This document shows, in pieces, positions 18,201 through 43,119 of a stretch of DNA of 64,000 bases. The notes under the pieces are model-generated. The model did no database searches and had not been told where the DNA came from. It saw only the letters and a list, made by a program, of their open reading frames with translations. Origin of the DNA: Yuukianura sp. NJ FZ-2021 (taxonomy: Eukaryota); contig CM102283.1 in the NCBI GenBank assembly GCA_046563655.1, positions 8,122,001-8,186,000 of the forward strand. The letters run 5' to 3'. The position numbers were made by a program, and so were the translations under genes. Each line of letters opens with the position of its first letter. Positions within the stretch are counted from its first letter, which is position 1.

Positions 18201-21200
18201 AATATTAGGGAAAAACCAATTACTGAAATCCACTTTTGTTTAGTACTTTGTTTGGGATTAGACAAAATTAGGCCAATGTGCTTTCCTATCTCAACAAATG
18301 AGGAAATTTAGCTTATTTGTTCTTTAACTGTGTAGTATGCTATGCACACAGGGGAAATTACAAAAACAATTGTCCTCGTTCCTCCAGATTCCAGAAAGTA
18401 GCACAGTTCCAGCAAGCACAACTGCATAAACAATTTATACTTTTCCACTTTGTTCTACTGCAAACCACACAAAAAAACAGAAACGCAAACATATCTTTCA
18501 AAATAAAACAAAATTTTTAGCACCTTGGCCAAATTTTTAGCAAAACTAAAATTTATCATTACCACCAAAATACCGGGTATTACACCGGAAATTTCTGGAC
18601 GAATCCTGAACAATCCGAATTTCCGACTCCAGATATCCGCGAATGCTCCACTGCGCGCAAAGCCATACGAAATTAATGAACTTTCTCACAAAAAAAAGCT
18701 TTCTTTTTCATCATCAGCCAACATCAGCATCAGCAAGCATCTCCTTCTGCTATCTCCTAACATAACATAATCCCCAGAAATCCATAATGTGAAGAGTCAG
18801 AACTAAACGTAGGTGGTTCCAGAAAGTCAATTAAAGTTCCCAAAAGACTTCTACTGTAAGCCAACTTTCTTCGCGACTCATTAGAAGACACACGGAAGTG
18901 ACTTTGGCTCCACCATCTTAGCCTAACTGCCTAACCTAGTCCATAACCCAAACCTTATACTTGTAACTACGGCCCCACAGCCAACTAGTTACAGCAAGTC
19001 GACAGTGACAAGGATTTCAAGGATTTTAGCAACCGAGCCAAGGCTAACCTCGTACCTTAATTTCGCAAGGCACCTAACACATCCTCGTGCAGCTCAAAAT
19101 AGTTATTCACGTTTTGCAAAAATGAAACTGAAGAGTGATGAGAGCACGTTGGAAGTAGAAGTACCATGTGCCAGGCCATACCCTAACATTCCTAGCATGA
19201 ATTACACAAAACCTTAACAATTGAGTACAATGTTCAATGCATTTGCCAACTTTCAAGGTAACATTCACGTGCACGTCACTCCCTAATAATTCTTTTCTTG
19301 CCCACTTCAATGTTATTGCACAACCATTGAATAATAGGGAAGTGAACCATTAGATTCTGCAAACCGCTTTAACATTAGCTAACCAGCATAGCATAACATA
19401 TTCCCTTTCCTTTTCAATTCTTAATTACTAATCTAACTTCTAAACACAATGGATACAAACAAAAACCACAAATAGTTGAAAGCAAAACCTAAGAGTTAAA
19501 GGGCTGATCTTATGGTTAGTAGCAGACTTGTCAAAAGTATTTTGCATAAACCATGGAAATATTGAAGAAAAATTTAAATCGCCCAAATAATATACCTTTA
19601 CGTATTTTTATTTACGTAATATTTAACATTACGGGCATGCGAAAATAAATAACCGCTTAAAAACAAAAACTCCAAAAATATTTTTTCAATTAGCAGTAGG
19701 GGCATGGAGACTACACTTTTAACTAACAAAAAAAATCGAAAATAGTTTTCACATTAGCATATTACCAGCAAAGGGACTAAACATGTAGGAAACAATCGAA
19801 AATAGTTTTTAAACTGGCATTACTTGCACGGGATGACTAAATATTTTTAACACGTCTGCTTCGCAGAGCTCAATTTTCATTTTTTTTAGTCAACGTTTTT
19901 TTTTGCAACTAGGAAACTCCACTTGTTTCAGGATTGGTTTTCAAGGTGAGTTTGCCGGCCGGTCCACTCTTTCCTCTATTATTTTTGCAACATGCGCAAA
20001 AACTTTTTTTCCTTTGTCTTTTCCCCTCCACGTTCCAAGGCCAGTTTCCAAAATGGCCAAATCCAATCCAGCAGCTACAGCACAAGTACAAAGTGCAAAC
20101 ACGCAAATCTCTTTTTTTTGTTTTCCACGGCCATAAATGAATTCCCAGGCACATCGCAGGGGAACAGGTTTTGGCCTGCTGACATACATTCTGAGCTCCA
20201 CCCAAAAATAATTCTGCCATCTTCCTTATATAACAACCAGGAACAAAAACAATACCAAGAACAATAAAAGTTCTCATTCAAAGTCACCGTGTCATGCTAC
20301 TATCAATTCCACCGGGCGCGGCGTGGTTAGTTTCAAGTTTACCAAAAAAAATTGCATGCTTTTTTTCATACTCGTGTAGGAATGACCTTCGTTTTTTTGG
20401 AGTTCCACGTTCCACCCTTTGCTTTTGGAGTCCGTAATAGTTAAATCCGCAATTAAAAATTTAAAACGACTTCCCTAACTTAACCAAGGTCTCACTTTGG
20501 TCGTTTTTGGTTTCCAATTTTTTTTGGATTTCCTACTTTAAAAAAAATTACGAAACTAATCTATCTTTGTCATTTTTTCTTTAAAACTTATTGCAAGTAA
20601 TGCAAATCATTCAATAAAAAAACTGCGTCAATCAACAACCCAAAGTATTAGAAAACAAAATTATGAGGGGAAAAAATTACCAAAAATCAAAAGTATGCAA
20701 AATTGCCTAAAAGTGGAAAATTTTGTGGAAAAATGGAACGATTTCGAAACTACCGCACTTACTCAATCCATAGGAAATTCATGACTAAAAAACTCCAAAA
20801 CGTGACAAAATTTCCAAAAATTCCGCATTTTGATATATACTAAAACATTTCCTTTCAAAAATATTTTCTCCATTTTCCAAAAAAGTAAATTACGTACTGT
20901 AAGGCAGAAAAGGGGAGGAGATGACGAATAACATAGTAGATTTTTCCATTTTGCCTTGGAGTGTTATAACTCTGAAATGAAAGCACATTTGACCTAAATA
21001 AAAATCTAGGTCCAAACGCAGAGTCAGTCAAGCGGATTCAGAAAATTACGAGCGAAGACTTTCTGTGATTCCCATTCCGAAAATCCTTTTGACTCTAACA
21101 TTTCAAAAATGCTTTCAGCGTGAAGAAAAATGCACAGTAGAAGCCAAAAATCATTTTTTCCCAAAAACAAAATGGAAATCCTGTTCTTTTCATAACAAAA

Positions 21201-24200
21201 AGAAAATAACTCCTTTTCACAAAAATTTAAAGAAACTTATAACAAAAATGTATTAAAAAGAAGAAAAAGAAATTGTGCCAAATTTTCAGAAAATCAAAAA
21301 ACCACGCTCTGATGCCGCTCCAACTTCAACTTCTCTTTGTCTCTAACAGATATTTTCTAAATTCTAAATTTCAAAAACCTGTGCCAAAACTTAAAAAGGA
21401 AATGCTCCAAGTTAATCAGTATAAAAACACAAAAGTTCTAAACATTTCCTAGAAGAAAGAGAGAAAAAATAAACAGAATTTGAGCGGTACTTGATTCTAA
21501 TCCAAAAACAGATTTTGGCAAATGTGTGACCTTGGGAGCTCCACAAAGTGCCACTTTCGTCCTCTTTCGCCTACGCATTTGCCTTCTGCGTTCCAATTCG
21601 CACAATTTCAAACACACATCTCATTTCATTACAGAAAAAGTTTCCACCATTTTCAAAATTTCATGCATTTTCAATTCCAAATCGTTTTCTCTCGAATTTC
21701 ACCCTCAGTAATTCACAAAAAAAAAAAATCAAAATTTCACCACAAAAAAGAAATCACAATCACCAAAGAAATTTTTTTTTTACCTTGATATAATCATACC
21801 CACCGCAGTTTTTCTCACATTTTCTCATTAATCACCGGTTTTGTTACATTTCAAAATGTTTTTGACTTTTTAAATAAATTATTTAACTCGTTCTACAACA
21901 TTCTCACTTTAATCAACTCCTTTCAAACTGTAAAATCCGTCAGTCAAAAAATCATTTCCAATTTTCATTATACTAAATCCTATACCATACAATTACCTCG
22001 TAACCCATATTCCAACTCACCATCATCCTCTTCTGCAAATTACTACGCATATTTGCACTCTTAAATCTTTAACCCTCTTCCACTTGCGTACTACTACACC
22101 TACAATTTAAGAAATCTTCACACCGCTCATCATCATAATCACATCTCTTCAAAAACCTGTACAAACAATGTACTACATGCACTGTGTACTAACAAAATGG
22201 CGTGACTTTTTACAAACTAGCCCCACCTTCTACCCACTTCCGCATCTACACCTTATTCCATCAATCTCATTTTAAACATTAAAAAAAATCTAAGAATTAA
22301 AAATGTCGTACTCCACCGGCATGAAAAATGAGCATGAAAGTCACTTTGAACAAAATCATGTGATATGCAATTGCCAATCCACTTACAAATGCAATCACCT
22401 GATGACGATATTTTTCATTAAATTTACAATGTTAAACTACGCCACATCATACATCAGCACCACAATTACCCAACAACCAGAAGATTAATTCACTCAACCT
22501 TATTTTGAACTTGTAATCCACATTTTTATGATGACATTGGAAAAGTGGGAGGATGGGCGCTAGAAAGTGCAATGAACTGCACCAACTGATAAACATGTGA
22601 TTCCAGAAACATCTATCTCACATCATGCAATCTCCTCTTTTCCATTACCATCCTATTCCACTTAATTTCTCCACTACATAGTTAGTAATTTAATGCAACT
22701 TTTTAAAGTAACAACCAAGGATAAAAAGGTTATAAACCACAACCCCTGTTTTTGTTTTGGACAAATTGCAGAAGCTTTTAAAACTAAAGCTCCAGATGGA
22801 AAGTGAGTGATGAAAAGTCAAAAAAAATTGGAAATGCACTTTTTCTAGTGCAATTTAAACCTTTTGAAATCAGTCACAGTCCTTAAAAGGCCAAAAACCA
22901 AAAGCTTCTGTTTTATTATCTTCCATTTGACCTCTGCTGAGCCTTTCAAAAAAATATGGAAAGATGCAATGACCTACCGAAGGTTTTAAATTTAAGTGTT
23001 CATCGTAAACACTCCAAAATAACTTCAACACCAAAATCTAGAAGCTGTTGAGGCCATAATCTCCCATTTAAACTTCAAATCAAAAACAAACTCACAAAAT
23101 GCCCAATCAAAACCATTGTCCAAAATAAATAAAAAATTCAATTAAACTATAATAATATCAGCTAAAAAAGGCAAAAATAGCAAAAGCCAAAAGCAAACTC
23201 ATTCAAAAAAATCAAAAGAGATTTTATTGTGATTTTTACAAACGTTGCACAGCTCCTGTTAGTTTATCAGCGACCTCTGAACTCTGAATTTAAAAAATGT
23301 CAAATTTCAAAATTTCCCAACCTTTTAAACTCTCACCCAAAAAACCAATTTTTTCCAAATTTTTCCAACGTTAATAAATTTTCCTCTTTAAAAAAAGCAG
23401 AGTTGAAAGTATTGCCTTGTACTTGGCCAGAAAAGGCAGAAAAAGTGAACGGACGATAAGAAATGACTCAATCTGTTTCAAATTTTGCCTCTGTCCATTA
23501 TCAAGTTCAATGCTGCCGTTTGACTCTTCTGTGCCACTTTAACATCTAAAAGCCAAGTACACCACACAGAATTCACTTTAAAAAGATGATTAAATGCTAT
23601 TCCCATGCAGATAAATAGGACAATGGAGATACGTATGGTATTGTTTGCCTCTACTGCAATGCAATCCTGTGCATTCGGCATTCCTTTTAAACAGTAAGCC
23701 TTTATTTGCGTTACTTCCTTTCCTCACTTTTACCGCAACTTCATCATGACATGACAATGACAATACATTGCCCAAGTGACGTACATCTTTTCATGTGACA
23801 ACTGACGACAAACTCCAATTTGTCATCAATTCAAATTGCCGGGAGTGACGTCGGCTCTTCCAATTTTTCAAGCTTCTAATTTTTAATTTTTAAATCCCGC
23901 TTGTTGAAAAACCTTTGTTTAATCTTGTTAAAAAGCAGAGAAAGTAAATTTTGTGAAACTTACCGCTTTGATGATCCCACTTTGGCGAATGTGGACTGCA
24001 TGAAAGACTCATAAGGACCATAGCCGCTGCACACTCTTCCATCCCATTGTCTTTCCCATCAATACTGATCCCACCGGAAACGGAAGCCCCACCGCTACCC
24101 GCCATCACAGATTGGTACAGACTCACGCTACTTGGACGACGCTTGCGGGATCTAAAAACAATCATTTCAAATTAGACTAAAACCTCCACACCTTAAAACC

Positions 24201-27200
24201 ATAACCAATGGAAATGAAATAAAAACTGTTTCCTACTTTTCAAAAAACTTTTTTGAAATTTTCAATAAAGGAGTCATGGTTGCTCAGATGTAGATTAAAA
24301 GTGAAATGGAAATCAGATACGGAAATGTAAAATGTGTGAGCGACCAAGCCGGTTTCCGCTTTCCTGTTTAAAAGTACTTCTCGAAACGCACCAAACTACA
24401 CAACATTTAACAAAACCCGCAATGCCAAAATAACATTAGTCACTATCAGTATCATTTTTAGTTTTAAAAATTTAGACTCACTGTTTTCAAAACAATACAA
24501 ACCAGTTCGTTAAACTTTAGGGGCCATGGACTTCATAACACAAACTCTTTCATAACAAAAGAATAAACAAAATCATAAAATAACACATAAAAATGAAACA
24601 AAAATATTAAACTGTTTTTTTGTTATAGTCGTAAAAACAAAGCACGAGTAAATTAAGTGTTACACAAAAACATAAAAACACGTTTACAATCAATGCGTAA
24701 AGCGTAAAAAAAGAAAACAGCAAAATAGTGAAAGTTTGGAAGAAAAAAATTACAACTTTTCAAAAGAAAGTTGTCAAAAAAAATTCTTAACTTTACACGA
24801 AGTTGACAAAAAAAAAAGAGCAACTTCTCACCTTTCACCAAAATCAAAAATTTCGCCAGACTTCAATTTCAATCAACTTCAATCAATTTCTTTCCTCCTT
24901 TTTTTCTTTGCGTTTTTTGCAACTTCATAAACCAAAACTATTTAGTTTTTTTTTAAATCAAAACTAACGAGAAGCACAAACCACAATAAGTCAAAACACA
25001 AGAAACAAAGATTGAGAGCTCTCAGAAATAGCAAACTTGCAAATTTTTCGCAAATTGTTAAAATGCGACTCCAAACAAACAAAAAATTAGACCAAAAATG
25101 AATTGCGAATTTGCCAACAACACTGCCCTTACGTCACTTTACTGCGTTCCTAATCACCCTAACCTCAACAAACCTTAACATTTATCATTAAATTTTCCAA
25201 GTTGCCAAAACAAACAAAATTGGCAACAAAAAAAAGTTTCGTGAGGAAAAACAACTGTAAGCGTCATAAAATTCCTTATTACGACACAAAATCTTACTCA
25301 AAGCACAAGGTTACAAAAAAAAATTTTTTTTCCGCAAAAATCTCCGTCATACCTTTTAATTATTTCCGCGAGTTCTATCTTCCCAGTACATTTTTTTAAG
25401 CAAAAACAAGCCAACTGAAAACCGGCCGGTAAAAATTTATTCCTGCGCAATAAGAAAAGTATTACGTTTCACTTCAATGCGAAATAGAACTATCCAGAAA
25501 GGATTTGCTAAAAAGCTCGATGATGATAACAGTTCTCACAAACACTGACGCTTGTGTTTACTAGTTTGTACATAAACAATTTTTTGCACTGCTAAAATTT
25601 TTTTGCACTCTCAATTACGTTCAGCACGTGCTAAACTTTAAGTGAAGATGATCTCGTCGTCACAAGAGATGCTTCCCACTAACTTACTTCCACTGTTCCA
25701 CTTGAATCCATGTCAAACCAACAGTATTTAACATATTCAATGTAATATATTAAGTATAATACACAGTTTAACACAGTGTTAGTTTCCCGGCCGGTTTCTC
25801 ACTACAACCAAAGCTCCAAAAGTTGAACCAGCTTATTAAGCATCTCTGCCACTCAAAAAATGAATTCACATCGCCATACTCTTTGCTTTTCCTCTGACCT
25901 CACAAAATCACAATTCAAAAACGAATTTGCGCAGTTCTGCTCATTCACTCCACAATAACCTCTAAACTTTGTTTATACAGTAGGTTTCTAACCAAAACCG
26001 GCTTTCCAAACAACAAAAAGTTTCTGTTTTCAAAATTTAGTCACCGCTACTCCACTACTGCCCAACTTTTTCCACTTCCAGGTTTTTTTTACGAGGTCAA
26101 CAGGATTCCAGTAGCCAAACGTTAAAATGTAAATAAAAAATCCCAAAATGCAAACACTTCCACAGAACTTTTTATGACCATGCAAAAAAAAAAATTTTTT
26201 TTTTCCATTTGCAAAAACTGACGTAACTCTTTTACTTTCGCCTTTCGTTTCTCTGCATGAATTTGCACACAACTGACCCACATTTGCAAAAATTAAGCAT
26301 TTTTCTGGAAGTTCGCATACGGAAATTTTACATCAAGAAACTACAAGGTTTCACAGAAATTTCCCCACGTGCCCTCCCCTTTAATGCGCTTCCTCACTGG
26401 AAATCAATTCAAAACACTTCGTGGTAGGTGATGACGTTGCGGAAATGTGAAATAAGTACTTTGGTCGGTTAGGTTTTTACTTTTTCCGATTGCCAGTCCT
26501 CGTGTGGCGTCATTCAATAGTAATTTCGCTGTATTTTACTCAACGTAGTTACATCTATGGTCATTTGCAGAGAAAAAGAGAAGAAAATGCGTTTTTAGCT
26601 TTAGGTATACTACATCTTACCTACCCTAAAAATCGCACGAGCAACCATAAATCTTCAATTGAAATCAAAATCCTTCGAAGCCACTTTCCGCACGCGCCTG
26701 CGCAGCTTAAGTCGAGTGCGTTATGCGTCATTTTGCAAATTCAAAATCACAAACTCGTGCCTACCCTCGGCACGAGTCTAATAATTGTCTCTTATGCAAA
26801 AACAAAATCTTTTGGGATTGGAACTTGCCGTTCATAACTCAATGCCAAATTTTTTGCAGAAACGAAACACACAATTTTTTTTTCTATATTCTACACATGT
26901 ATATACACAATTTATATATGTATATTATTATAGTATGTAAAATCTAATAAGATATAATATACCACTCATGGTCACTTTATCCCATGACTTTCAATTGATC
27001 ATGCCTATTTCCACATTAGCACAAAAACTAGATTTCTTCATCACCCTTTCAAATTCTTCACAATCTTCTAGAATATTAAATTTCCATTGTTCTCTTCTCA
27101 CACTTTGCACAAAAAGTACAAAAACTCTCATTGTGTCATTAAACCACATTTTGAGCTACACTTCACTTCCAACTTGTAAATAATTAATTCCTAACATGAA

Positions 27201-30200
27201 AAGCAAAAGTGGAACTTCTGGAAGGCTAAACAAATACAGGTGAAGTCGAAATTGATGTTCCCTCACTCTTTCCAAAAAGCCTACAAGTAATCCAACGCCT
27301 ATAAAAAGTTTACAAGTAGTAGATCAAGGCCATTTTCGCCAAAATCTGCACATAGCCTTTATTATGCTCAAGTATACGTTATTTTCCGAAGGCGTAAATT
27401 ACTCATGCAGCTTCTTCAAAAATACTAAACAACACAAAATGTAAACACCATTTATAGAAAAGTTTACATTTTTAGTTGTTTTTCATTTTAAATTTCAAAA
27501 CACACATGTAAATTTAGCCTTCCGTAATATTCCACCATAACTTCTGAAATTAACTCTCTCCATTTTAGTAAAAGAAGTTTGAAGAGTTGTGAACTTGCGA
27601 AATCTGAAAGTGAAAAGTGAATAGGGCTTAAATTGGCGTTTTGCAATAAGCATATCATCTTTTATATCAAATGTTTCTATTCAGTAATTCAGTAAATCCC
27701 AGTAGCACTTTATACAATTGAAATGAAAATCCACCACTATTACATTACACCTTCATTCAGTAAAAAAAACATAATAAGTGTAATGTGCCAAAAGCGACTT
27801 ATTAAGCGACTTATTCACGTATGCGCAATTTTTATGCTTTTCCGCTCGCACTCTTTTCCATAAAAATTGTACACCTAGCGTACTATTTCACTCTAACTTT
27901 TTTTTTCATTAAGTTACCTTGTCTCTCGTACAAATTGCAAAGTAAGCCAAACAGTAGTGCGAAATCGTATAACAAATCTCGTTCCTCTCAAAAATGAGGA
28001 CAAGGCAACGCTAATCTTAGCCCATATTTTTTCCAACTCCTTGACCACTACCATTACCATCATCATTTTCTATGCCAATAAAACTGTGCAAAAAAATACT
28101 TTCATCATATTCGCAACAAGCACGTTAAAGTTATGTTATACCTGTGTTCCCAAAAGCCAACCATGCGCATCCACCACCATACCAAAATTTAAAGTTACCG
28201 CACTTAAGCATCATTAAAGTCTCCTTGATTAAAAATTGGAAAGCGAAACTTTAAAAGTCTAATCTTAGCATTCCTATAGTAGTAGAGTTAGTTAGTGTAA
28301 AAAGTTATTGTACATAGCTCGGCCACTAAAAAGTTAAGTTAATCATGGGGATGTTGCGGTTTGTTGTAAACCGGCCGGTAAAACCTCTGTACAGTCACAC
28401 TTCGACTTCATTATCTTTGCATGTTAAGGCAAACAAGGAACAACAACACACAAAACCAAAGAGAAATTTACAACGGGACTCTGGCGTGACCTTACTAATT
28501 TCTTCATTTTTTAGCTTATGCTAAAAATTGGGATAAATTTTGGAAAATTTCAAAATTTTGACTCACCCGTTGCCATTTTTCGGAACGTCAATGGAAGCTG
28601 TCTGTTGGTTTCTCTTGCGATCTGTACTGACATCAGCGAGCCGTGCAAAATCAAAATCCTGTTCCTGGAGACGTGCAGATTTTCGAGACTCCATCAATCG
28701 AACTTCGTCGAGTCTTTTGGTCACATCAAATGGAATCTGAAAAATTAAAAAAAATTGACATTATAAAAAATATCAGGAAGACAAACTTTGTAAAATGACA
28801 TTAGTTTATGCTTGAAGCAGCGGCAATCATTTTTGTTGCAAAGCAAATTCACATCAACTGTCACTCTCCTTTCCAATGATAGCCAAATACAAAAAAAAAG
28901 TAAGCAGCAATCTTCCATTATTCTTCACAGTCATTAATCACTGCTCACTTTTTTCATTTCAAAATTCACATTTGAAATGTTGCACAGATCACACAAATTG
29001 TCCCACAGAAAATTTTGCATCCGCAGGCCACGATGCGCAGAATTCTCATCATCATCATCATCATAAACCAGCATACAAAAACTTTTAAATACTAATGAGA
29101 ACGTGTAATTCCGCAATTGCATAGTTACCAATTGGTTGTTCGTTGCCCAAATTTTTCAAAATCAACCATTTTTGTTCATTTTTTGTGCCAAACCCACTGA
29201 AAACTAATTCTCACACTTTTCAACAAAGATTGAGTAAAAAACAATTTTTTATAATTTTTTTTTAAAGTTTCAAACTGGACTCACAAGTATTCCGATCCAG
29301 TAAAGAGAAATTTTTTGTCAAGTTTTTCAAAAAAAAATTTTTGAAAAAATATTCTCGTTTTAAATTTGCCGATTTCGACCAAAGTAAGGCAAATGAAAAT
29401 TAGTCAAGCGGATTTCTACAGAATTGTACTTAAAAGCTACAGTCACCAGGCGTCAGCTGCCCAAAATTGCTAAAACCCTTGGAAATCCTTGAGTCATTTA
29501 AATTGAAATGGTTAGTTGTTAAATTTAAAAGCCATTTCTCATACTATTCTAAAAAATCAAGAACCACAAGAAAAGCACTACAATAAGTCCCAGTTGTGCC
29601 GCCGCCACAAGATTAGTTTTCGCTACCTACTTAAAGTGACGATGACGACCACTTCCAACAAAAACTTGATAAAAATCCAATTTACAGTAGTGTACACCAA
29701 CTTTTTTACAAGTTTACGAAAGAGCTTCCATTTTATAAAGTAAGCACACCATTTTACGAAACAAAAACAAAAACTTTGTCCCAATTTCTTCCTTTACTAT
29801 TTTTTCTTTGTTACTTGGGACGTGACCATCATCGACAAGCCAAGTCTTGCTCTAAGCAAACTTTAGCATCAACATTAGCCAAAATGTAACTGTCCAAATT
29901 GAAATTAATTTAAATCTATATCAACTTAATTAATGCCAGAGGACGACACTTCCAAGCCACTCCTTGGCATTAAAAGGCGCCAAAGAAGAAGAAGCCTTCC
30001 ACGGGAATTAATTCTGTGTGAAATTCAGAGGATTTCAAGTTTGCAAAATCCCCAGTCCTTGCCAATTTTCAGCGTAACATTCAAGTTTTTTGGGCATTTG
30101 AATTCATTAAATGACTCTTTAACTCGTATAAATTAATTTCCAAAGTTACAATAATTTTAAACGTTATAATAAATTATAAATTAAAAAAGTACAATGTGTT

Positions 30201-33200
30201 TTTACCAAGGATACATTAGACACTTATCGCTTTAAGCTCACCAGTTTGTAGTTACTGTAGTTCAACTCACATTTTTTTTCCCAAAATGTGCGTGTGCAAA
30301 ATTCGGAAGGACCTCAAAACCCAACCACCTCAAAAATTTTTTGAACCGGTTTTTTTTATTTCAAAATTCTGATTCTTTTACGAGAATTTTAAATCCAAAC
30401 CAGAAAGTTTTCTGAGGGTATTCGTGCTGGTTCGTAAAAAACAGGATTTATAGTAACGCTAACATGTGAGGGAGGGAGCGGCGGTAAAGCAGTTCTTCAA
30501 AGTATAAAAAAGAAAACAAATAAATAAAAAAATACCGTAAAGTGAAATTATAAATTCAACTTGTGGACTTTAATGTCTACAATTCATGTACGAGTTGTAA
30601 CAGCTAGAAGCAAGCAGCAACAAGCATACAGGAAGTTCAAAGAAATTAAAAAACGAGTGACCAAACAGAACAATAAGGCAGTTAATACAGCAAATAAAAA
30701 TTCATTTGAAAAAATTAAAAAAATTACAATTTTTTTAAATTCTACACATTGTATTACAGTCACATCAACGGGAAGTTGCTAATAACATTTTCCATTGTTG
30801 TCACATTTTTTCCCATTGTGTAAATTTTTCTTTGTTTATAATTTAATAATAATGCAGAAATAATGCAAAACATTCATAATTAAACATAGTTCTCCACATT
30901 CAAGGAGTGAGAGGGAGAGAAAAGATTCTTACGAGAGATAAAAATTCTCTCATTTATAATGTATATGTGCAACATTTTATAAAAATTACTTACTATGCCA
31001 CAACGCTAGGCACATTTACTATCAAAATGGTTAGTTTTTTGCTAAGTAGCGGAGCGAAACCGTAAGTAAACTAACCGTACTTTGTCTAAACTAAAACTTT
31101 AACTTTTAAAAAACGCACTGTACAAAACTTTAACCTCACAAGACGTCATATTTGCTCATCCAATAAGCACAAACCGGGAAGTCAGGATCAGTAACTGGTG
31201 CTCACTAACACTAACAACTACGTTGAGTGATAGACCATGTAATTGCCACCTTTCAACTCAGGGTCATGTCCACATCAAACACGCCATTTCTAGTTACAGT
31301 TCTCTTTCGAAAGTAACCCATATTTCATCTCTAATTTTTTCAAACTTATCAAATTTTTTCTTAAAATTTTACTTCAACACTGTTATATTTTATAACACAT
31401 TGCTTTTGTTTCACAATTTCCTACAGTCAACAGACCCCTTACAGCGCAAATTCTCTTTTACTTTTTACAAAAATCCAAAGTGTAATTTACTCTAGTGCCA
31501 ACAAAAGAAAGAGAAAGCGTGTCTCTTCCTTCATGCAATTCGCATAACAATTTGACAAAAAGAGAGTGACACCAAAATGTGTCAACTCTGTCTTAATTTT
31601 ACAAGTCTTTCGTTGTGTTACAGCCTTACAGCAAAACAGCAAAATTATTTTGCCTACAGCAAAAAATTGATGTCGGTTCAACACACTGCAAATTTGTGAT
31701 TAATGCGAAACTGTGCTTACGGCTTTAGCCGATGTTACACCTTACAAAAAAACATGAACATGTCATTCACTTCAACTTTAGAACGAGTGACGGTTGGAGT
31801 CAATTTGCTCACCATTTTCTAAAAAAACGAAAACCGTAAAAAAGTTTTCGATTTTTTGTCGTTTTTTCCTCTCTTTTTTGCAAGTTCGTAACCCAGCAAC
31901 ACCGGATAAGCTCAGACAAGGTTTTGAATTACAGGAATGAACAAAAGAAAGCTAATTTCTAAATTATAGGTTTGGACATGGGCATAGCGTGATTTCAAAG
32001 ATAAAGCAAGAAGTAAATGACCCGTGTAGCAAAACCTTTGATGCTGATCATGAGGTAATGGCACAGCAAAATCCAAGGTTTGTTAAAACCAAAAACTCGA
32101 AAAACGAAGAAGATCAACTCTTTTGCTCGACTTTATAATCCAAAATTTAAATAGACTCTTGTCCATAAACCTCGTCAGAAACAACTTCAAAAGAGAAGTT
32201 CATAGAACTTTGCAAAGGTCATTCTGAGGTCACCGGCTAGTTGCTCAATTTTTTAGTCAAGTTGATGAGTCTGACTCATTTCCAAATCGTGCTCTGATTT
32301 AAATTGACAGATTCCAAAAATTAAGCACCTTTCACACTCTAATTTTAGTCTTCATACTCTGATTAAAGTTAGGCTTAGATTGCACATACGCCTAACCTAA
32401 TCAGAAGGTCATTGACCTCTTGATTAAATTCCAAATTATACTTAACATGTTTACAAAAAACTAACACTTATGCCTAATCATTAATTACTCAATGCTCCTG
32501 ATTTGGTGGTAAAAACCGTTCTTTTTCCTCCAAAAGAAAAATTTCCAGTAAAAACCGTCATTACGAAACGTATCAAGTGTGACGTGATTTAGCAACAAAA
32601 AAGGACATGACGATTCGCAAATTGCAAAAAATTGCAACAATTTCAACCCAAAAAGTGAATCAAGTAGGAAAACTGTTTTTTTTTATTTGCTGACAGAAGT
32701 CAGACCATCAGTTTTCAATTGATTACAAAAAGTCAACACCCGATAACATCAATTTCACAATTTCAGGTTGATTAGTCACCCCCATACAACTTTTTTTTTG
32801 CGAATTCACCGGACGCCAATATTCCCCTCACCGGCTTCCTCACAAACCATTTAGTCATTACACAGTTATTCAAAAAACGTTTACCAAAAAAACTTGTACA
32901 TTGGGAAACGTTAAAAAAAACTAAATACGTAAACCTACGTCTTCAAATTTAACATTTTAACTTCCTTGTATCCAGTGCTATTGTTTGCTCTTACTTTCAA
33001 AAAATACTATAAAAAAAAAACAAGACAAATTTATGATTCACCAGCACAAAGTAAAAATTTTTTTCATAAAACGTTTATGTTTATGAAATTTCTCACCTAG
33101 TAAGAAAGTTAAGAAATCATTGATTCATAATGCGAAATATTGCGCAAAATTGAAAAGCTTTTGACACCTTTTCAAATTCCTATTTACAATGTCCTTCCCT

Positions 33201-35267
33201 TTAAAGTAAGTAAAAGTGCACGTCAAAACCTATTGTTAGCCAAGGGAGTAGTGTAAAGTTCCGTTAAGGTTTTTAACACCATGTAAATTAAATAAAACCA
33301 AAGACTTAGAAGGCCGGGAAGGTTCAAATTTCAAATTTCACCAATGGCTAACCCTATGTATCCCGAAACCATAAGCCTCTTAGCATAACAAAAAGTAGCA
33401 CACGCTACTAATGCTGATGACTCAGTTAAAAATTCACACAAAAAATTTAAACAAAATTCAGCAAGATTTCAAATTAAAAAAAATATTGATGACATAGCTG
33501 AACTAGCCTTGCTAAAATTGCCATCCTAAGCTAAAACTAAAAAAAAGTCAACTACCAAAACTTCCTGTTTTCATCAGGTTTAAAATTTCAGAAAAAAAAA
33601 TCTCAAGTAGACAAAAAGTGTACACAGCTGAAATCTGCTGGACTCAAAAAAAAACTGACAGGAAGAAACTGATGACACAAGAAGATGAGAAACATGATAC
33701 AGTTGGCCATTTCCATTATACACACTCATTTTTTTCTATCCATCCTCCATGATTCTCAAAATTCAGAGTTTCTAGTTAGACTTGACTTGGAAAAGAAGAA
33801 GTTAATGAACTGAAGATGATGCAAACAAGGGAAACTACAACTTAAAAACCCGTACGACCGACCACAGGAAAAAAAAGACGCTACAACGTTGCTCATCTTC
33901 ACTTCACATCAAGAGGAGTAGACCAAAAGGGCTTTACCCCCACAAAAAAAATCATCAAAACATGCATTTTGGCCGTAAAACTTTTTTTTTGCAACAACTT
34001 TTCGTGTTGGTGCCTTGTGCAGTCAAATGCCGGTTAACCCCGTTGCTGTGCTTTTTCAATTCCCTTTTGCTTTAAAAATTTCACCCAGCAACAAACTCTT
34101 TAGCTTCATATGCTATGCATTTCCTCCCTTCATCAGCTTTATTTGTACATGCGCTGAAACGCTCCAGCGAAGGTCAAAATCGCTGCGTTCCCCACCCGCT
34201 TTCAAGCAAAAAACGGAGTAAAAGCTATATGGTTTTCAGCTGTTAGAAAAAAAGCCAATGCCACAAGCTACCCGGATACAACTTAGGTTGGCCCCGATTT
34301 ACACCGAAATTCTCAGAAGCAAGAAGCTTCTTTCTGCATTTTCTCGCCCGGCAACAGCAGAAGCACGTTTCACTTTCTCTACTTTTAGTTTTAGCAAGTT
34401 TTCAGCCCAATTTCAAAATGAAGCTTTCCACTTCTTCTCTTCTAATAAAACTAAAAGCGTCATTTCTTGTTAACACTTCCTCTTTTTGGAATGAAAACGA
34501 CGCAATTCGGAAGATCAAATATTTAACATTCTTGTAAACAGCGTGCTTCTTGAGTTTATTCACCCGAATAACAATCACGCATCAAGGAAATGCAAAAGAA
34601 CAAGGAAGCTTTCGGTTTCGTACAATTTTTCCGAAACGTTTTGGTGTCGTAATTGCCTGGAACCTTTTGGTTTCGTACAATTTTACTGGAAAATGAAACT
34701 GCTTTAGTTTCGTATTTTACAGGAAGCGTTCAGTTTAGTACAATTTTGGAAAATGGAAACCGTTTTGTACTTTACCAGAAGCTTTTGGTTTCGTACAATT
34801 TTAGTGGAAACTTCATGGCAAAATCCCGTAAAGCATAAAATGAGACAAAAAGCGAAATTAGGAAACTAATTTGGTCTTACCTCCGGTGAACCCGGTTGTG
34901 CCTGAGCTTGGACGTTGATGAGAACTTCATCGCGTGCCGGTTGGTGGTAAACCACAGTGCCCATGACCTCACGGCCATTGTATGTCACCCAAGCCTTTTG
35001 ACCATTCCGTAGTTTCAGGTTACTGATGTTTCCAAATCCAGAGCCAATGAGGTCCGATTCTCCAAATTCCCGGGTATCCCCGTTTTCAAACCGGACAATA
35101 TACTTGTTATTCGGACTAATTCCAGAGACGTTGGCAAAAAACGGATGATCTTCTGGCGACTTGGAGCCAATGATGGTTCCGGGTTGGTAGAATCCACTTT
35201 CTTTGACATATGCAGAGATGCGCGTGCCGACGATTGACCTCTTGGCCAATCTCTTTGCAGTAGACAT
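12287..35267 (-). CDS. ZNF704: ZNF704/ZNF395/SLC2A4RG-family (Glut4EF-like) C2H2 zinc finger + C-clamp transcription factor, ~486 aa
   Basis: Exons 35267-34881, 28736-28567, 24151-23964, 13799-13490, 13401-13229, 12615-12461, 12364-12287, phase-consistent (1461 nt). N-terminus MSTAKRLAKRSIVGTRI..., RLDEVRLMESRKSARL, conserved MEECAAAMVLMSLSCSP, single C2H2 finger FECTWPGC...IEAHVRYAHLG, DHEEEFYYTEVE, and C-terminal C-clamp [34 protein letters not shown]. Probably the single invertebrate co-ortholog of the three vertebrate genes. Confidence 0.93.
22566..22578. promoter_or_regulatory. hsp27-type EcRE-like IR-1 (AGTTCA-T-TGCACT on the minus strand)
   Basis: Plus strand AGTGCAATGAACT; close to the Drosophila hsp27 EcRE (GGTTCAATGCACT). 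Confidence 0.4.
32197..32418. promoter_or_regulatory. Nuclear-receptor element cluster: perfect IR-1 (EcR/USP-type), DR5 and an imperfect IR-1
   Basis: AGGTCA-T-TGACCT at 32406-32418; AGGTCA-TTCTG-AGGTCA at 32216-32232; AGTTCA-T-AGAACT at 32197-32209. Confidence 0.55.
34611..34810. repeat. Degenerate tandem repeat, ~25-35 bp units with core GGTTTCGTACAATTTT
   Basis: About 7 diverged units. The core is near-intact at ~34614, ~34669 and ~34787. It lies in the intron just after the first coding exon of the ZNF704-like gene. Confidence 0.7.
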
Positions 35268-37060: not shown

Positions 37061-40000
37061 AGATGCGGAGAGCGAGTGAGAGGAGAGAAGGCCGAATCTT
37101 TGTTTTGTTATTGAAAACCAGCTGGGATAGGATGAACCTCACGCGCCAACTCCCACCGCACCACCACATTCTTAAGCCTACCTCACACTTCACGACGCAA
37201 CACGGTCGCGCGCGGTTATTAGAAATAATAAACTATGTAATATAAAATATTAATACGGGAAATAGATAATAATTTATCGAAAAGGTATGCCATAAATTGG
37301 AAATTGAAAACAGATGTTTCCTGTTCTATGGACGAGCTGTATTACAAGAGTAATTTTTTACAACAAAAATTAATTTAGTTTCACCTAAAGTAAACCATCA
37401 AAAAAGTCAATATTTTATTGAGTTTGATTGTTTTCAGTGCCATCAAGTTTTTACATGTGATTTTGGCTACAAGTGTTTTACTGTAAAACCTTTAAGAGTA
37501 AATTTTAAAACTAGTTGCATACACAGTTATTTATTTCGATTGATATTTTTGGCTTACAATTACGATAAAAGAGATTTTAAGATAAAACACATACTGATTT
37601 TTAACATTGTAGCTTCAATGTCAAGCATACCCACAAAGATTATTGGAGTTTTAGTGGAAATTATTAGAACGCCGATTCGTCAAAAATTCGCGTACCAAGG
37701 GAGTGGCGTGGACAGGGCTTAAGAGGGGTTGATATTTTGATATAGCCAAGTTCTGTCAATTCTGTTTCCTTTTCCCTAGAAAATGAATTTTGTTGAATTT
37801 TCCATTCAAATAATTTTTTTTCAAAAATACCTACTTGCGATTCTTAAATTTTTGGAGAATCATCTTTTGAATTTAATGCAAAAATGAATGGACATTTCGT
37901 TTCAGTTGGTAGGATCTTGCCGAAGATGATATGAGTTGAATTTAAATGGCCGATTTTCCCCTAATCCTGCGTCACTTTTTCCCCTGTTCCCTCCCAGCTG
38001 ATTCCATATTTACCCTCACAGATGACGATGACGTAATTCCCTTAAGCTCCGCCCATACCCAAAACCAAGTTATCATTCAACCAAGGTCATTTTACCACAA
38101 ACTTAACTAAACCTCACGAACTGTTTACACCCATCACTCTTCGTGTCTGTTCAGAACTTGTTCAAACAACTTTTAGCTCAATTAAATTACCACGCACACA
38201 CAAATCTTCTGATATCTTAATTTTTTCCAAGGAAGAGAGAACCAGAATTTAGAAATGTTGACCTTGGCTATAATTAAAGTCGGGGAAATCTAAACCACAA
38301 AAATACTTGCCGGCCGGGCCGGTCAGTGGCAGAGTGTGAAATGAGGTCAAGTTTTCTGAAAAAGAAGAAAATGGAAGTAGGCCAGAGGTCAAGGCCACCC
38401 GCGACATTTTGGCGTCCCGGGGATCGCAACCGGATTTCCTGGAATTTGAAATTACTTTTTTTTCAAGAATTTCGGAATTTCCGCGGCTCTAAAAATTTTC
38501 AGCCCTATTTTTGAAATGGGCGGACTTCGTTTCACTGGAAATGATCTGTAGACTGTCATTTCAGCATGACCAAATCGTCGTTTTCCTCACATCTTCATCT
38601 AACCGCTGCTGCTTCTGGCATCATCCTGGTTAAAAAAAAAGTTATAAAATGGAAGCCTAGATTTCCTGTGCTGATTCGGACATTTCCGTGACCTAGATTC
38701 AGCGCTGCTTCTCAATCGAATCTACACGCTGCCGCTTTTCTCAAGGCTTTCACTGCAGCAGCAGCGACCTAAGTTTCGTTCATCTTCAAAAGCAAAGTCA
38801 GCTCAAGCCGAAAGCCTTAGTAGGTTACATTTTCCCGGGAAAACTTTTTTCTGGATGTTCCCATTTGAATTTTCCTGCCGTTGGCGCTGTTATACGATTG
38901 AGGACAATCGATTTTTCATTTCCTTTGGGTGTTAGTCAAACGGTGCGTGCCCGTGCCCTTCAAAAGAAAAAAAAAGTAGTTCAGTTAGCAACAAGAGCAA
39001 AGGTTTTGCTGCAAAACCTAACCATAGTTAAGCCATTTCCAGAAAACCTGTCCAGAAGAAGCCTTACAAAACCCTATAATCAATATTTGCAAACCTTTTT
39101 TTCCAAAATCGAAAACTCAAAATTTGACAACTTCATCAATTTCGGATTTGAAAGTAAACAAGTTCCGAAAGGAGAAGCTCAGAAAAAGCAAATTGGCGGT
39201 TTTTTGTGCTCAAAGATGAAAACGAGGTCATCTTGTATGGTTCTGGATCTCCGTCATCTGTACCATACGGCTTATTTGTCCTACTACCCGGGTTTTCTAC
39301 GCATTATACCGGGAGAGAATCGATCCGATTCCTCCACGTGGCAAGGGCATACGGACTGACGCACACAAAAATAAGGGCTCCCGTGTACATATTTAGAGAT
39401 TTAGTAAAGGGCTCTTCAAAAAAGCCTAGCTCAACTTAAGTATTTCATTACGATGCTAAAACTTCGGAATCGATCGCTCATTTTCTAAAAATGGAAAGAA
39501 ATAAGATCTTCACTTTCGCTTTTAAGAGTCGAAGCGCTCGAAATTCCTGGAATTACTTTTCGCCAAAATCTAAATTCGCAGATTCTCATTTCATTTCCTC
39601 GTTTTTGCAAAAAGTGAAACCGAGCACCGTTTTTTGTAGCAACGACCTTGTAAGCTAAGAGAAGCTAAGAGAAGAAGGTCACCGGAGTTTTAGTATCTAG
39701 CGGTGTATAGTTACCACTTTGAGCTTTTTTTAGAACATGAAATTAAAAAAAATGTTTCAACTTTTTGTGTTTTTCAAAAAGTTGCAAACTAACGACAACA
39801 GGAAGGAGGGCTATTTGTGAATTGCGATTCCGCAATAATTTGTTGAATTATTTATGAAGAATCCATTGTCTAATATGAAAATTGCAGAAACGATGACCCT
39901 GTGAACGGGGTGAGTTGCGAATTTATGAGGAATGACAATATGCAGACGTTAAGAATTTTTATAAGGCTCATCCTTAAGTCCCCCTTGACATGTTGTCTCT

Positions 40001-40319
40001 TGTCGTTAACTTCTTGCTTTTTGAAAAATTTATGGTGCAAGATGTCCTCTTGCATCAAAGGAGTGCCTGTTATTAACGCATTGTGCTTATTAAAACTTTT
40101 AATTATTCTAAAATTTTGAAGTTTGAAGGTGATTCGACTTACGATAAAAAGAGATGCAGCAGCAGCAGACATTTTTTCAATTGACTTCAACTTCTTGGTT
40201 GTAGCAGTTCCCAGCACTAAAGTTAAACAAAATACATTTTTAAAGAAGTTTTTAAAAATACATTGCAGTACTTTGAATTAAGTTTTCAGTTTGATTTTTT
40301 CTTACCCAAAGTGACGAAA

Positions 40320-40757
40320 ATGCACAAAGCGTTGGGAATTCTCGTGTTTGGCTTGTTGTTGGACTTGATGCTTCTGCTAGACACGACTGCTGCCAGAGGT
40401 CCTCGCAGTATCGAGCCGTTCCGGAAGTATCAGCATCAAGTATCAAGTGGCAAAGTGACACTTTTGGACTCCAGAAGAATTCGGATCGAAGGATTCCGGT
40501 ATGACGGTGGAGCCAACAATGCTTTCTTCTGGGTCGGCCAAGGAAGTCGGCCGAATCGGAACGGAATGCAAATTCCAGATGAAAACGGGAAGTATGAACC
40601 ATTGCGAGGATACGACCGAGAGGACATCACGCTCACACTGCCCTCTGACCTCACTTTCAACGACATTGACTATCTGGCTGTATGGTGCAAACGATATGTT
40701 ACAAACTTTGGGCATGTCGTCATACCCAAAAATCTTGACCTTCCAAAATACAAGTAA
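40320..40757 (+). CDS. Secreted single DM13-domain protein (Skeletor/knickkopf-type DM13), 145 aa
   Basis: Intronless ORF from ATG 40320. Signal peptide MHKALGILVFGLLLDLMLLLDTTAA, then a DM13 pattern: HQVSSGKVTLLDSRRIRIEGFRYDGGANNAFFWVG...GMQIPDENG..PLRGYDREDITLTLP...IDYLAVWCKRYVTNFGHVVIP. AATAAA follows at ~40827. Confidence 0.88.
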   Translation: MHKALGILVFGLLLDLMLLLDTTAARGPRSIEPFRKYQHQVSSGKVTLLDSRRIRIEGFRYDGGANNAFFWVGQGSRPNRNGMQIPDENGKYEPLRGYDREDITLTLPSDLTFNDIDYLAVWCKRYVTNFGHVVIPKNLDLPKYK

Positions 40758-40859
40758 TTTGTACAAATGAAACTGAAAAACTTTCAAATTGAAAAATTCA
40801 ATGATCATGTTTTAAACAAAGTAACAATAAATAAACAAAATAATAAAAAACGTGAAATT

Positions 40860-41357
40860 TTAACCGCGACGACCTCCACCTCTGCCCCTCCCGCCGCCTC
40901 CACGGCGTCCTCCTCCTCCTCGTCTGCCTCCACCGTGGCCTCTGTGTCCACCGTGGCCGTGACCTCTGTGTCCACCGTGGCCTCTGTGTCCACCGTGATG
41001 ATGACCGCGATGACCGTGACTGTGGTGATGGTGATGATGATGGTGCCCTCTATTTAAGACTTGGCGGATCCGATTTCCCACAATCCTGCCAGCACCAGCT
41101 ACGTGATGGGGTCTTAGACATCGTCGTCCAAGCAGTTGCAGCTCGCGACATGACGTGCCAATGAAAATTTGTCGTTTCTCGCGCAGTCGCAGTACGTTGC
41201 TTTTTAAGGCATCTGATACTTCGTTGTCCGAGGAAACAAAAGATACTGCGCAACACAGGATGGACAGAACTACGAAAAATGTCACCTGGAAATAAAAATG
41301 TTGATTAAAACAAGTTAACAATTTAAATAGAAGTAAATGTTATTAAATTACCTTCAT
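40860..41357 (-). CDS. Orphan secreted His/Gly/Arg-rich prepropeptide, 143 aa (candidate antimicrobial or metal-binding peptide)
   Basis: Exon 1 41357-41352 (ATG AAG|GTAATT) and exon 2 41285-40860 (TTCCAG|GTG). MKVTFFVVLSILCCAVSFVSS (signal peptide), DNEVSDALKSNVLRLREKR (pro-piece with furin site), then QIFIGTSCRELQLLGRRCLRPHH...GHHHHHHHHSHGHRG(HGGHRG)n...GGRRGGGGRGRGGGRRG*. Confidence 0.8.
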
Positions 41358-42011
41358 TTTTGTGCCAATTTCAACCTCGCAACATGGCAGAGTCCAAAGA
41401 GTGACAAACGATGACTGTTGAAAACTGGCATCTGACAGTTGTGGAAAAATAAGTTGACTCAGCAGCAGTTTTATGCCTTGACACAAGTCAAATGCGGAAT
41501 GACTATGTGTGAATTATGGAAATCAGTTTAGTGAGAAACAAAGCCATTAAACCGTTGTTTTGCACTCAAAAATAGAGTACCCCGTTCTACGACGCAAACT
41601 GAGTTAACTGATCTTTCTTAATTTGAGGAAGTAAACTCAACTGCCGAAAACTGAGTTGAGGTCAGCATCAGCATTTCACATTTGAAATTAAATTCACCGA
41701 CTTGTGGATCGTAACTGTTTATATCAATCAAAATTCGAAATATTTTTGACGAGTATTAAACTAATAAATTGGTAAGTTCAAAGTGAATAGAAACTTTGAA
41801 AGTTACAACAAAAGAGTAAATATAAACAGCACATCAAAGTACGTACATCGCTATATACCAGTAAACGAATGTACTGAAATACGATACCGTTTGCCTTATG
41901 AATTGGTAATGGATTTCTACCCTCCAATCTCCAACTCAAGTGTCCAGTTAATTGTATAAGTTTAGGGTGACCTGACCTTACTTCGATGCTCCTGCTGCTC
42001 TGCTTAACTGT

Positions 42012-43119
42012 TTACTTTTTCCAGCCACGTTTCCATTTGTCAGCTTGGGAGAATTCAGTCATCGGTTTTCCTGAAACCCCGCAAGTTCCAATGCCAACAC
42101 GACCGTCCACAGTAGTCGGAGACGCAAAAATACTCTTTTTCTTGTTAAGCAGGCCTTTCTTGCTCTGCAAATATAACAACGAAATGTTCTGTTATTCCCA
42201 AAATTTACATGCATTTACTAAAAAAGTATAACATTATTAGCTTACTGCGAAGTTGCTCCATTTCTTCTTGTCCTTCTCACGTTCTGCTTCTTGCGTTTGG
42301 ACACGGGCTAGTTTCTTCTGTTTTCGCTTTTTGAGATACTCCTTCTGCTTCAGTAAAGCCGCTTTCCTGAAATTAAATTGTTAGTTCCTTGGTCTAGTAA
42401 ATGATCAGACTATCCGCTAATCAAGTGAAATGACTTACCTTTCGGCCAGGGATTCCTTGGGAGAGTTCTGGATAGTCTTCTTAGTGGCAGAAACAGCGGC
42501 AGCGGAACCTTTTGTAGCTGCCTTCTTCGGTGGAATTGAGACGTTAACGTCAGAGCCAACAGGCTTGATTAATGATATATGCGTTACATCTCCGTGAGAA
42601 TACGCCGTAAAACCTATTGAGACTTTACCATCAGGCTGAATTTCTTCTATGACAGCTTCATAGTACTTTCCGTCTTGTGGCCATGGTGCCAAGCATTTGT
42701 CTCCGACATTCCAATCTTCTGGGCCCTTCTCCTCCTCTTCTACTTGACAATAACAAAATTCAAAATCAAACCTTCTGAAAGCTATTCGGAGCTAAACATA
42801 TGCCATGCGACATATATCCAAATCCTTACCGTAATCCAAATATCCTGCTTCACTTGCTGAACTACTGGAGGGTTCGGAAGACTGCGACATAAGTTCCTTC
42901 GTCAGATCAATAACCTCTTGCAAGTCAGCTTTAAGTTTCTGTAGCTCGTCATTGTTCGGATCTGACGTAAGGGCTGCATCAACCTTAACATCAGAAAGAA
43001 TATCATTAATTATCCTAATGTAAATAATGGTAAGTAACACTAACAAGTCCAATGGACTTAATCGTTACCTGTTGAAGTTGGAGATAGTACGATTCCAAGT
43101 TCGTTTTTACGTCGTCCAT
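42012..43119 (-). CDS. SMNDC1: Survival of motor neuron-related splicing factor 30 (SPF30), ~260 aa
   Basis: Exons 43119-43069, 42983-42830, 42742-42439, 42366-42246, 42164-42012 (783 nt). N-terminus LESYYLQLQQVDAALTSDPNNDELQKLKADLQEVIDLT; Tudor domain WNVGDKCLAPWPQDGKYYEAVIEEI; C-terminus KSIFASP...GRVGIGTCGVSGKPMT. Confidence 0.95.

Follow-up and report, generated by a model that had tools for sequence, protein, structure and literature searches.

The locus at positions 40,860 to 41,357 of the window (the whole stretch of 64,000 nucleotides that was analysed) is probably a real two-exon gene on the minus strand. On the strength of its sequence we tentatively assign to it, at somewhat less than an even chance, a small convertase-processed, secreted, cationic and host-defence-like prepropeptide of the Gly/His-rich kind. 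What is unusual in the predicted product is the combination, within one small precursor, of a putatively convertase-released head with an N-terminal Gln and a disulfide loop, a run of eight His followed by HGGHRG repeats, and a GGGR tail with Gly as its last residue. From this composition we infer that the peptide may have an antimicrobial or a metal-binding function. If expressed, it would add a modular example to the Gly/His-rich cationic peptides, the structures and modes of action of which are called largely obscure in PMC5031766, and could serve as a natural system in which to test the gating of activity by metal or pH.

The initial annotation had proposed a two-exon gene whose start, Met-Lys from a 6-nt coding exon, was overlooked by the listing of open reading frames, and this model was recovered with its exons and intron in place. 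The coding part of exon 1 (41352..41357, minus strand, read from 41357 to 41352) is ATG AAG, found in the context ACAAAAATGAAG and leading directly into the donor AAG/GTAATT (the slash marks the exon border). It is followed by a 66-nt GT..AG intron (41286..41351, minus strand; 18% GC), the 3' end of which, TTTATTTCCAG, shows a pyrimidine run and then CAG. The coding part of exon 2 (40860..41285, minus strand; 56% GC) comprises 141 codons and the stop codon TAA at 40862..40860. The predicted product is 143 amino acids long, two residues being contributed by exon 1 and 141 by exon 2; the translation of exon 2 is designated P0001, and its numbering is used for all residues below.

Since P0001 does not contain a single Met, an upstream start exon is needed. 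Candidate start exons were taken from 41352..42100 wherever an ATG led to a phase-0 GT with no stop codon in between. Among the seven candidates obtained, the Met-Lys exon has the best donor, with agreement at 8 of 9 consensus positions (6 in the runner-up), and it alone gives an intron of usual size (66 nt, against 98-730 nt for the other six). In two neighbouring genes, the five introns inferred as best-fitting measure 63, 71, 63, 68 and 82 nt. The GC content changes in sharp steps at both borders of exon 2, from 18% in the intron to 48% in the unique part of the exon (56% in the exon overall) and to 14-22% directly past the stop codon. Furthermore, the Met-Lys start plus a 14-residue hydrophobic core coincides exactly with the acceptor. 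A coding first exon of 6 nt can conceal a secreted-peptide gene from annotation based on open reading frames.

The explanation against which this gene model has to be weighed is that no gene exists here, a coding-like GC-rich minisatellite holding frames open between real genes while the ATG, the splice-like signals and the hydrophobic stretch are coincidental. We consider this rather unlikely, and several observations nevertheless speak for it. The length of the open reading frame is weak evidence of coding because the GC-rich repeat holds all frames open: each of the three frames of the minus strand runs through it, as do those of the plus strand, and a second minus-strand frame is also open over 41050..41304 (84 codons). 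Codon usage was scored as a log-likelihood trained on 18 open reading frames of the window, with the best of six frames from ORF-poor DNA as the null. The unique part of the proposed frame scored 0.058 per codon, the highest of the six frames, and this value is unsupportive, lying below the 5th percentile of the window's coding windows (0.17) and inside the null range, below its 95th percentile (0.079). A scan of the minus strand over the 460 nt past the stop codon revealed neither of the poly(A) signals AATAAA and ATTAAA. The proposed start is preceded, within 75 nt, by two further ATGs (41431 and 41385), of which the former begins a frame of 25 codons (41354..41431, minus strand) whose TGA overlaps the main ATG as ATGA, and the latter one of four codons (41371..41385, minus strand). 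The failure of all searches to return a relative, described below together with the lack of a paralogue within the window, also agrees with a non-gene.

Against such a coincidence stands the meeting of independent signals at one place, namely the start context, the donor with 8 of 9 consensus positions, the pyrimidine tract with CAG and the typical intron length, together with the GC steps at both borders of exon 2 and the hydrophobic core set exactly at the acceptor. The locus also occupies a 1.25-kb gap between an SPF30/SMN-like Tudor gene and a DM13-domain gene to which no other gene was assigned. Frame-specific simplicity is a further point. The repeat half is written in the proposed frame with four amino-acid letters at an entropy of 1.59 bits, while the five remaining frames need 6-10 letters (2.2-2.95 bits). 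Twelve kinds of codon are used for these four letters (4 for Gly, 2 for His, 5 for Arg and 1 for Ser), His being encoded by CAT 7 times and by CAC 13 times, and codon variety is similar across the frames. Only the proposed frame is simplified despite this similar variety, and it mixes synonymous codons in doing so; this is the outcome to be expected from selection on a Gly/His/Arg peptide and not from plain slippage of one DNA unit. What raises the locus above chance is the joint occurrence of the splice signals, the start context, the size of the intron, the steps in GC content and the frame-specific simplicity. If it should prove to be unexpressed, the locus would be a warning that coding-like minisatellites beside splice-like signals can mimic peptide genes.

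Under the gene model, the precursor is laid out as follows. The rest of the predicted signal peptide (P0001 1-19; 41229..41285, minus strand) was recognised by hydropathy, the 9-residue Kyte-Doolittle means of the first 13 windows being 1.7-3.1, and application of the -3/-1 rule by eye gave possible cleavage sites after residue 15 or 19. Next comes a pro-piece of 19 residues (P0001 20-38; 41172..41228, minus strand), which is mildly acidic, with 4 acidic and 5 basic residues when its terminal REKR is counted in. This REKR (41172..41183) is the sole R-x-[KR]-R in P0001, lies exactly between the 19-residue spacer and the cationic part, and would be a furin-type cleavage site. The non-repetitive part of the putative mature peptide (P0001 39-79; 41049..41171, minus strand) begins with Gln and contains the Cys loop CRELQLLGRRC (41118..41150) and a basic segment. 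It is followed by a His-rich block (P0001 81-117; 40935..41045, minus strand), in which eight consecutive His precede HRG/GGH repeats and up to 14 His occur per 20 residues, and by a Gly/Arg tail (P0001 118-141; 40863..40934, minus strand) with four GGGR units at residues 118, 124, 130 and 136, ending in RRG before the stop codon. In total, HRG occurs four times, GGH three times and GGGR four times, and there are four GRR sites, one of which lies inside the Cys loop.

The features on which the initial annotation had built its reading were all found again: the signal-like start, REKR with Gln as the first residue after it, a remainder of about 103 residues with two Cys, the eight His, the GHRGHG/HGGHRG-type repeats, the terminal RRG and the single acidic residue of the mature part. 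Its 18-bp DNA repeat needs some extension. Tandem Repeats Finder reported, in 40923..40997, behind the HGGHRG units, both an 18-bp period (2.0-3.5 copies) and a 24-bp period (2.1 copies, 96% matches), and a separate 6-bp repeat at 41023..41045; the periods of 6, 18 and 24 bp are all multiples of 3, in favour of the gene model.

The remainder after REKR comprises 103 residues, of which 33.0% are Gly, 21.4% His and 19.4% Arg; 62 of the 103 (60%) fall in low-complexity His/Gly/Arg sequence. A single acidic residue (Glu) stands against 20 Arg, Lys is absent, and there is one aromatic residue. Its two Cys (residues 46 and 56) are separated by 9 residues, and two more Cys are located in the signal region. 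The calculated mass is 11.0 kDa, the calculated pI about 12, and the calculated charge +19.8 at pH 7.4 and +35.8 at pH 5.5. Prediction by AlphaFold2 from the single sequence gave a low-confidence model (mean pLDDT 51.4, pTM 0.26), with coil from residue 80 and with helices at 46-56 and 59-79 predicted at pLDDT 44-62 only. The amphipathicity of the unique and basic part was not unusual, as its hydrophobic moment was reached by 329 of 2000 shuffled sequences.

A plausible course of processing can be proposed from these features. Removal of the 66-nt intron would join Met-Lys to the frame of exon 2, the signal peptide would route the product into the secretory pathway, and a furin-type convertase would cleave after REKR. 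The newly exposed Gln may then cyclise to pyroglutamate, the two Cys may close the 9-residue loop by a disulfide bond, and the terminal Gly may serve amidation. The Arg charge, roughly +20, could bind anionic microbial surfaces. The 22 His would add about 16 charges between pH 7.4 and 5.5 and could supply imidazole ligands for Zn or Cu, in which case acid pH or metal might switch or strengthen the activity, as is reported for the GGH-repeat plant peptide shepherin I. The general layout of furin-processed antimicrobial peptides (AMPs), that is, a signal peptide, a pro-piece, R-x-[KR]-R and a cationic mature part, is found in the predicted sequence. Furin sites are known in Drosophila AMP precursors, for which PMC6857651 gives RVRR in DptB and Attacin C.

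The region upstream of the start was also scanned for immune-type promoter motifs, with kappaB and GATA sites defined by consensus sequences. In the 655 nt upstream no GATA site was found (about 0.9 expected) and one loose kappaB-like match was present (about 0.3 expected from the density in the window). Such sites near the start are common in genes for furin-processed AMPs and are not obligatory. In this respect it is unlike a classical inducible AMP promoter. The amphipathicity, the promoter scan, the Gly content (half that of the classical members) and the low-confidence AlphaFold2 model did not support the Gly/His-rich defence reading.

Gly-rich AMPs described in PMC5031766 and PMC7017220 include holotricin 3 of Holotrichia, tenecin 3 of Tenebrio, the shepherins (with the GGH motif) and the armadillidins, and the predicted peptide was compared with each of these by description. 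Holotricin 3 has 64.1% Gly in 84 amino acids, with His in second place (PMC5031766); a Gly-His peptide from cat flea saliva is reported to be 55% identical to holotricin 3 (PMC3458046), and a 'holotricin' gene of Aedes to be induced by fungal infection (PMC9852974). As far as these descriptions go, the candidate resembles holotricin 3, tenecin 3 and the flea and Aedes peptides in its predicted secretion, in having about 80-100 residues and in the dominance of Gly and His. It differs from holotricin 3 in its Gly content, 33.0% against 64.1%, and so falls short of the very high Gly content of the holotricin type (PMC5031766). The candidate further differs from these peptides in having 19% Arg and an N-terminal disulfide-loop module. 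To our knowledge, holotricin-type Gly/His-rich peptides have no Cys, poly-His run or Arg-rich tail.

Armadillidins, as described in PMC7017220 and PMC5031766, carry 3-7 GGGX units, more than 10% Arg and an encoded terminal Gly, and have no defined secondary structure. In PMC7017220 they are given as peptides of about 50 residues, with no Cys in the printed sequences and with a conserved family signal peptide, that were found only in Oniscidea (terrestrial isopods). The likeness to the candidate lies in the GGGX units, in which X can be R (four GGGR units in the candidate), and in the terminal Gly after Arg; in the armadillidins Arg is the main residue after Gly, and His occurs in the GGGF(H/N)(R/S) repeat. 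In contrast to the armadillidins so described, the candidate is twice as long, has an N-terminal loop that would be released by furin and a run of eight His, and is placed in a genome of insect-like gene structure.

Shepherins I and II of Capsella, with 28 and 38 residues and 67.9 and 65.8% Gly (PMC5031766), share with the candidate the GGH motif, three copies of which lie within its 37-residue His block. They are plant peptides and are short, with about 66-68% Gly and, as far as they are described there, without an Arg-rich tail or a Cys loop, whereas the candidate has 103 residues and 33% Gly. Zn(II) renders shepherin I fibrillar and antifungal, according to PMC10698721. This response may serve as a mechanistic model for metal-switched activity in the candidate, as an analogue only. 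Likewise, the peptide would be a compositional analogue of the Gly/His-rich defence peptides and not a demonstrated homologue. Compared by composition and description, the candidate cannot be filed in any known family of Gly/His-rich peptides.

The strongest functional rival is a structural or metal-binding matrix protein, that is, a secreted low-complexity Gly/His-rich protein of cuticle, mouthparts, eggshell or a similar structure, in which His would be cross-linked by quinones or would coordinate Zn; we regard it as unlikely. Cuticle proteins tend to be rich in Tyr, Ala and Pro, and for such a protein the make-up of the candidate, with its 19% Arg, one aromatic residue and no Lys, is atypical. 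An exactly positioned furin-type site together with a lone Cys loop is characteristic of processed peptides more than of matrix proteins, and neither the Rebers-Riddiford nor any other Pfam domain was found in the product. The contents of 33% Gly and 21% His agree with a matrix protein, as does the scan of the 655 nt upstream, from which immune-type promoter motifs did not emerge. Moth scales contain abundant cuticular proteins with 6-45% His, which can be cross-linked by laccase2 with NADA or NBAD (PMC8062583). For the jaws of Nereis, PMC13120676 proposes that His/Gly-rich proteins with a signal peptide bind Zn, an example being Nai11527 with 29% Gly and 16% His, and counts as His-rich any region with a run of at least 10 His or with no fewer than 8 in 20 residues; the candidate has 14 in 20. 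The likeness to the jaw proteins Nvjp-1 and Nai11527 and to His-rich cuticular proteins such as BmorCPR152 consists of the signal peptide and of the high Gly and His contents; in those proteins His is a metal ligand or a site of quinone cross-linking. On the other hand, they are much larger or bear the Rebers-Riddiford domain. The mature product of 11 kDa contrasts with the Nvjp-1-like jaw protein, for which about 53 kDa is given for a partial protein (PMC13120676), and the descriptions drawn on from PMC13120676 and PMC8062583 mention neither convertase processing nor Arg-richness for the jaw and cuticular proteins.

A second functional rival is a signalling or secretion peptide (neuro/endocrine, seminal-fluid or salivary), in which the head with pyroglutamate and the disulfide loop would act as the ligand, with the His/Gly/Arg part serving to space or carry it. 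We hold this to be distinctly improbable. The signal peptide, the dibasic/furin site, the N-terminal Gln, the disulfide loop, the four GRR sites and the terminal Gly would all suit it, and by established prohormone processing such a layout is also that of peptide-hormone precursors. Cleavage at the GRR inside the Cys loop would destroy the loop, however, and 62 low-complexity residues out of 103 are atypical for a spacer; the frame-specific simplicity suggests that the repeat part itself was selected. Moreover, no known neuropeptide family was recognised, and the Pfam and sequence searches were empty. In saliva, it is usual for small secreted peptides to evolve fast and to lack relatives (PMC3458046).

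Returning to the host-defence reading, a more specific form of it can be put forward, to which we give a low probability. The gene could belong to a lineage-restricted family of modular defence peptides, in which a pyroglutamate and disulfide head, a poly-His/HGGHRG sensor block and an amidated GGGR tail would be joined; Zn/Cu or acid would switch the peptide from inactivity to microbicidal action or self-assembly, or back. If true, such a family would unite in one gene features that are known apart from each other in the shepherins, the armadillidins and the His-rich Zn-binding proteins.

Relatives of P0001 were searched for in several collections. The Pfam scan with E up to 1 returned solely a sub-threshold match to MerT, and the Rebers-Riddiford chitin-binding domain was absent; the MerT match scored 18 bits, its cutoff being 32.9, was aligned on the hydrophobic N-terminus and was discarded. 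In a word-indexed search covering 5.8 billion proteins, residues 1-80 gave 10 candidates with none at E <= 1, and the full P0001 gave 8000 scored candidates (lengths 77-247 aa) with none at E <= 0.01. When the 79 non-repetitive residues were compared exhaustively by phmmer with 1.84 billion representatives, there were three matches at E 5e-5 to 1e-3, which were internally repeated open reading frames aligned in several stretches and without the signal and Cys-loop architecture, and were therefore attributed to chance. Exact look-up showed that both P0001 and the protein of the neighbouring DM13 gene are absent from the protein collection, and the ESM Atlas contained no usable match for P0001. 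With phmmer against the PDB, 148 sequences were obtained at E <= 1; the best 60 of the 148 aligned to chain ends and to engineered tags or fusion constructs (His-tags), and were rejected. No paralogue was found in the window by tblastn with P0001 and its halves, the top non-self match (E 0.014) falling in low-complexity sequence. A full-text literature search with a 10-residue stretch of the loop region gave no match, and a His-rich family was looked for in PMC2853521, on the AMP-like genes of Nasonia, where the term is absent.

The initial annotation recognised no family with this combination, and none was found in the Pfam, word-indexed, phmmer, ESM Atlas and PDB searches. Its interpretation holds in part: its gene structure and its scheme of processing follow from the sequence and are not surpassed by any other model considered, and the designation 'orphan' is not established, the collections being poor for this lineage. 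The DM13 protein, used as a control, had 6 relatives among 14 candidates, all of them unnamed, with top identities of 75% and 72%. Since this control shows that the lineage is barely covered, the absence of relatives of P0001 says little on orphan status. Of the 19 putative AMPs from an immune library of Eristalis, 16 represented novel types listed with no significant match, disulfide-bridged cationic and Gly-rich ones included (PMC2039750). Because unmatched, lineage-restricted putative AMPs are common in flies, a candidate without matches is unsurprising in itself.

The window is eukaryotic in character, with 29-46% GC in 2-kb windows and short introns, and bacterial promoter and terminator scans are inapplicable to DNA of this type; a search of the whole window against Rfam gave no match. 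The neighbouring genes and the introns of 63-82 nt would suit an insect. Upstream of the peptide gene, and also on the minus strand, lies the SPF30/SMN-like Tudor gene (42012..42800), with at least three exons represented by open reading frames at 42435..42791, 42237..42380 and 42012..42191 and with the stop codon of the last exon at 42014..42012. Its Pfam match to SMN_Tudor scored 22.5 bits, slightly below the cutoff of 22.7, and its C-terminal exons are presumed, by likeness to the human protein, to be those of an SPF30-like gene. Downstream and convergent is the DM13-domain gene (40317..40757, plus strand; PF10517, E 7e-25), a single exon encoding a small secreted protein. The stop codons of the DM13 and peptide genes are only 102 nt apart, so their 3' ends probably overlap. 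Past its stop codon the DM13 frame stays open for 99 further codons (40758..41057, plus strand), antisense through the His/Gly repeat, and we take this for an effect of low complexity and not for read-through.

Farther away, from a reading of their open reading frames, we take the sequence at 6.2-8.4 kb to be an HMG-CoA-reductase-like gene, that at 44-49 kb to be a large Ser/Pro-rich gene, and that at 51-55 kb to be presumably a multi-exon gene. The stretch 12000..34000 is ORF-poor and shows a persistent strand asymmetry; in 2-kb windows its GC skew is -0.10 to -0.28 and its AT skew reaches +0.16. It may represent a long intron or a transcribed spacer. Two long stop-to-stop frames assigned to no gene, both on the plus strand, were also observed, one of 220 codons at 38697..39359 and one of 180 codons at 5271..5813.
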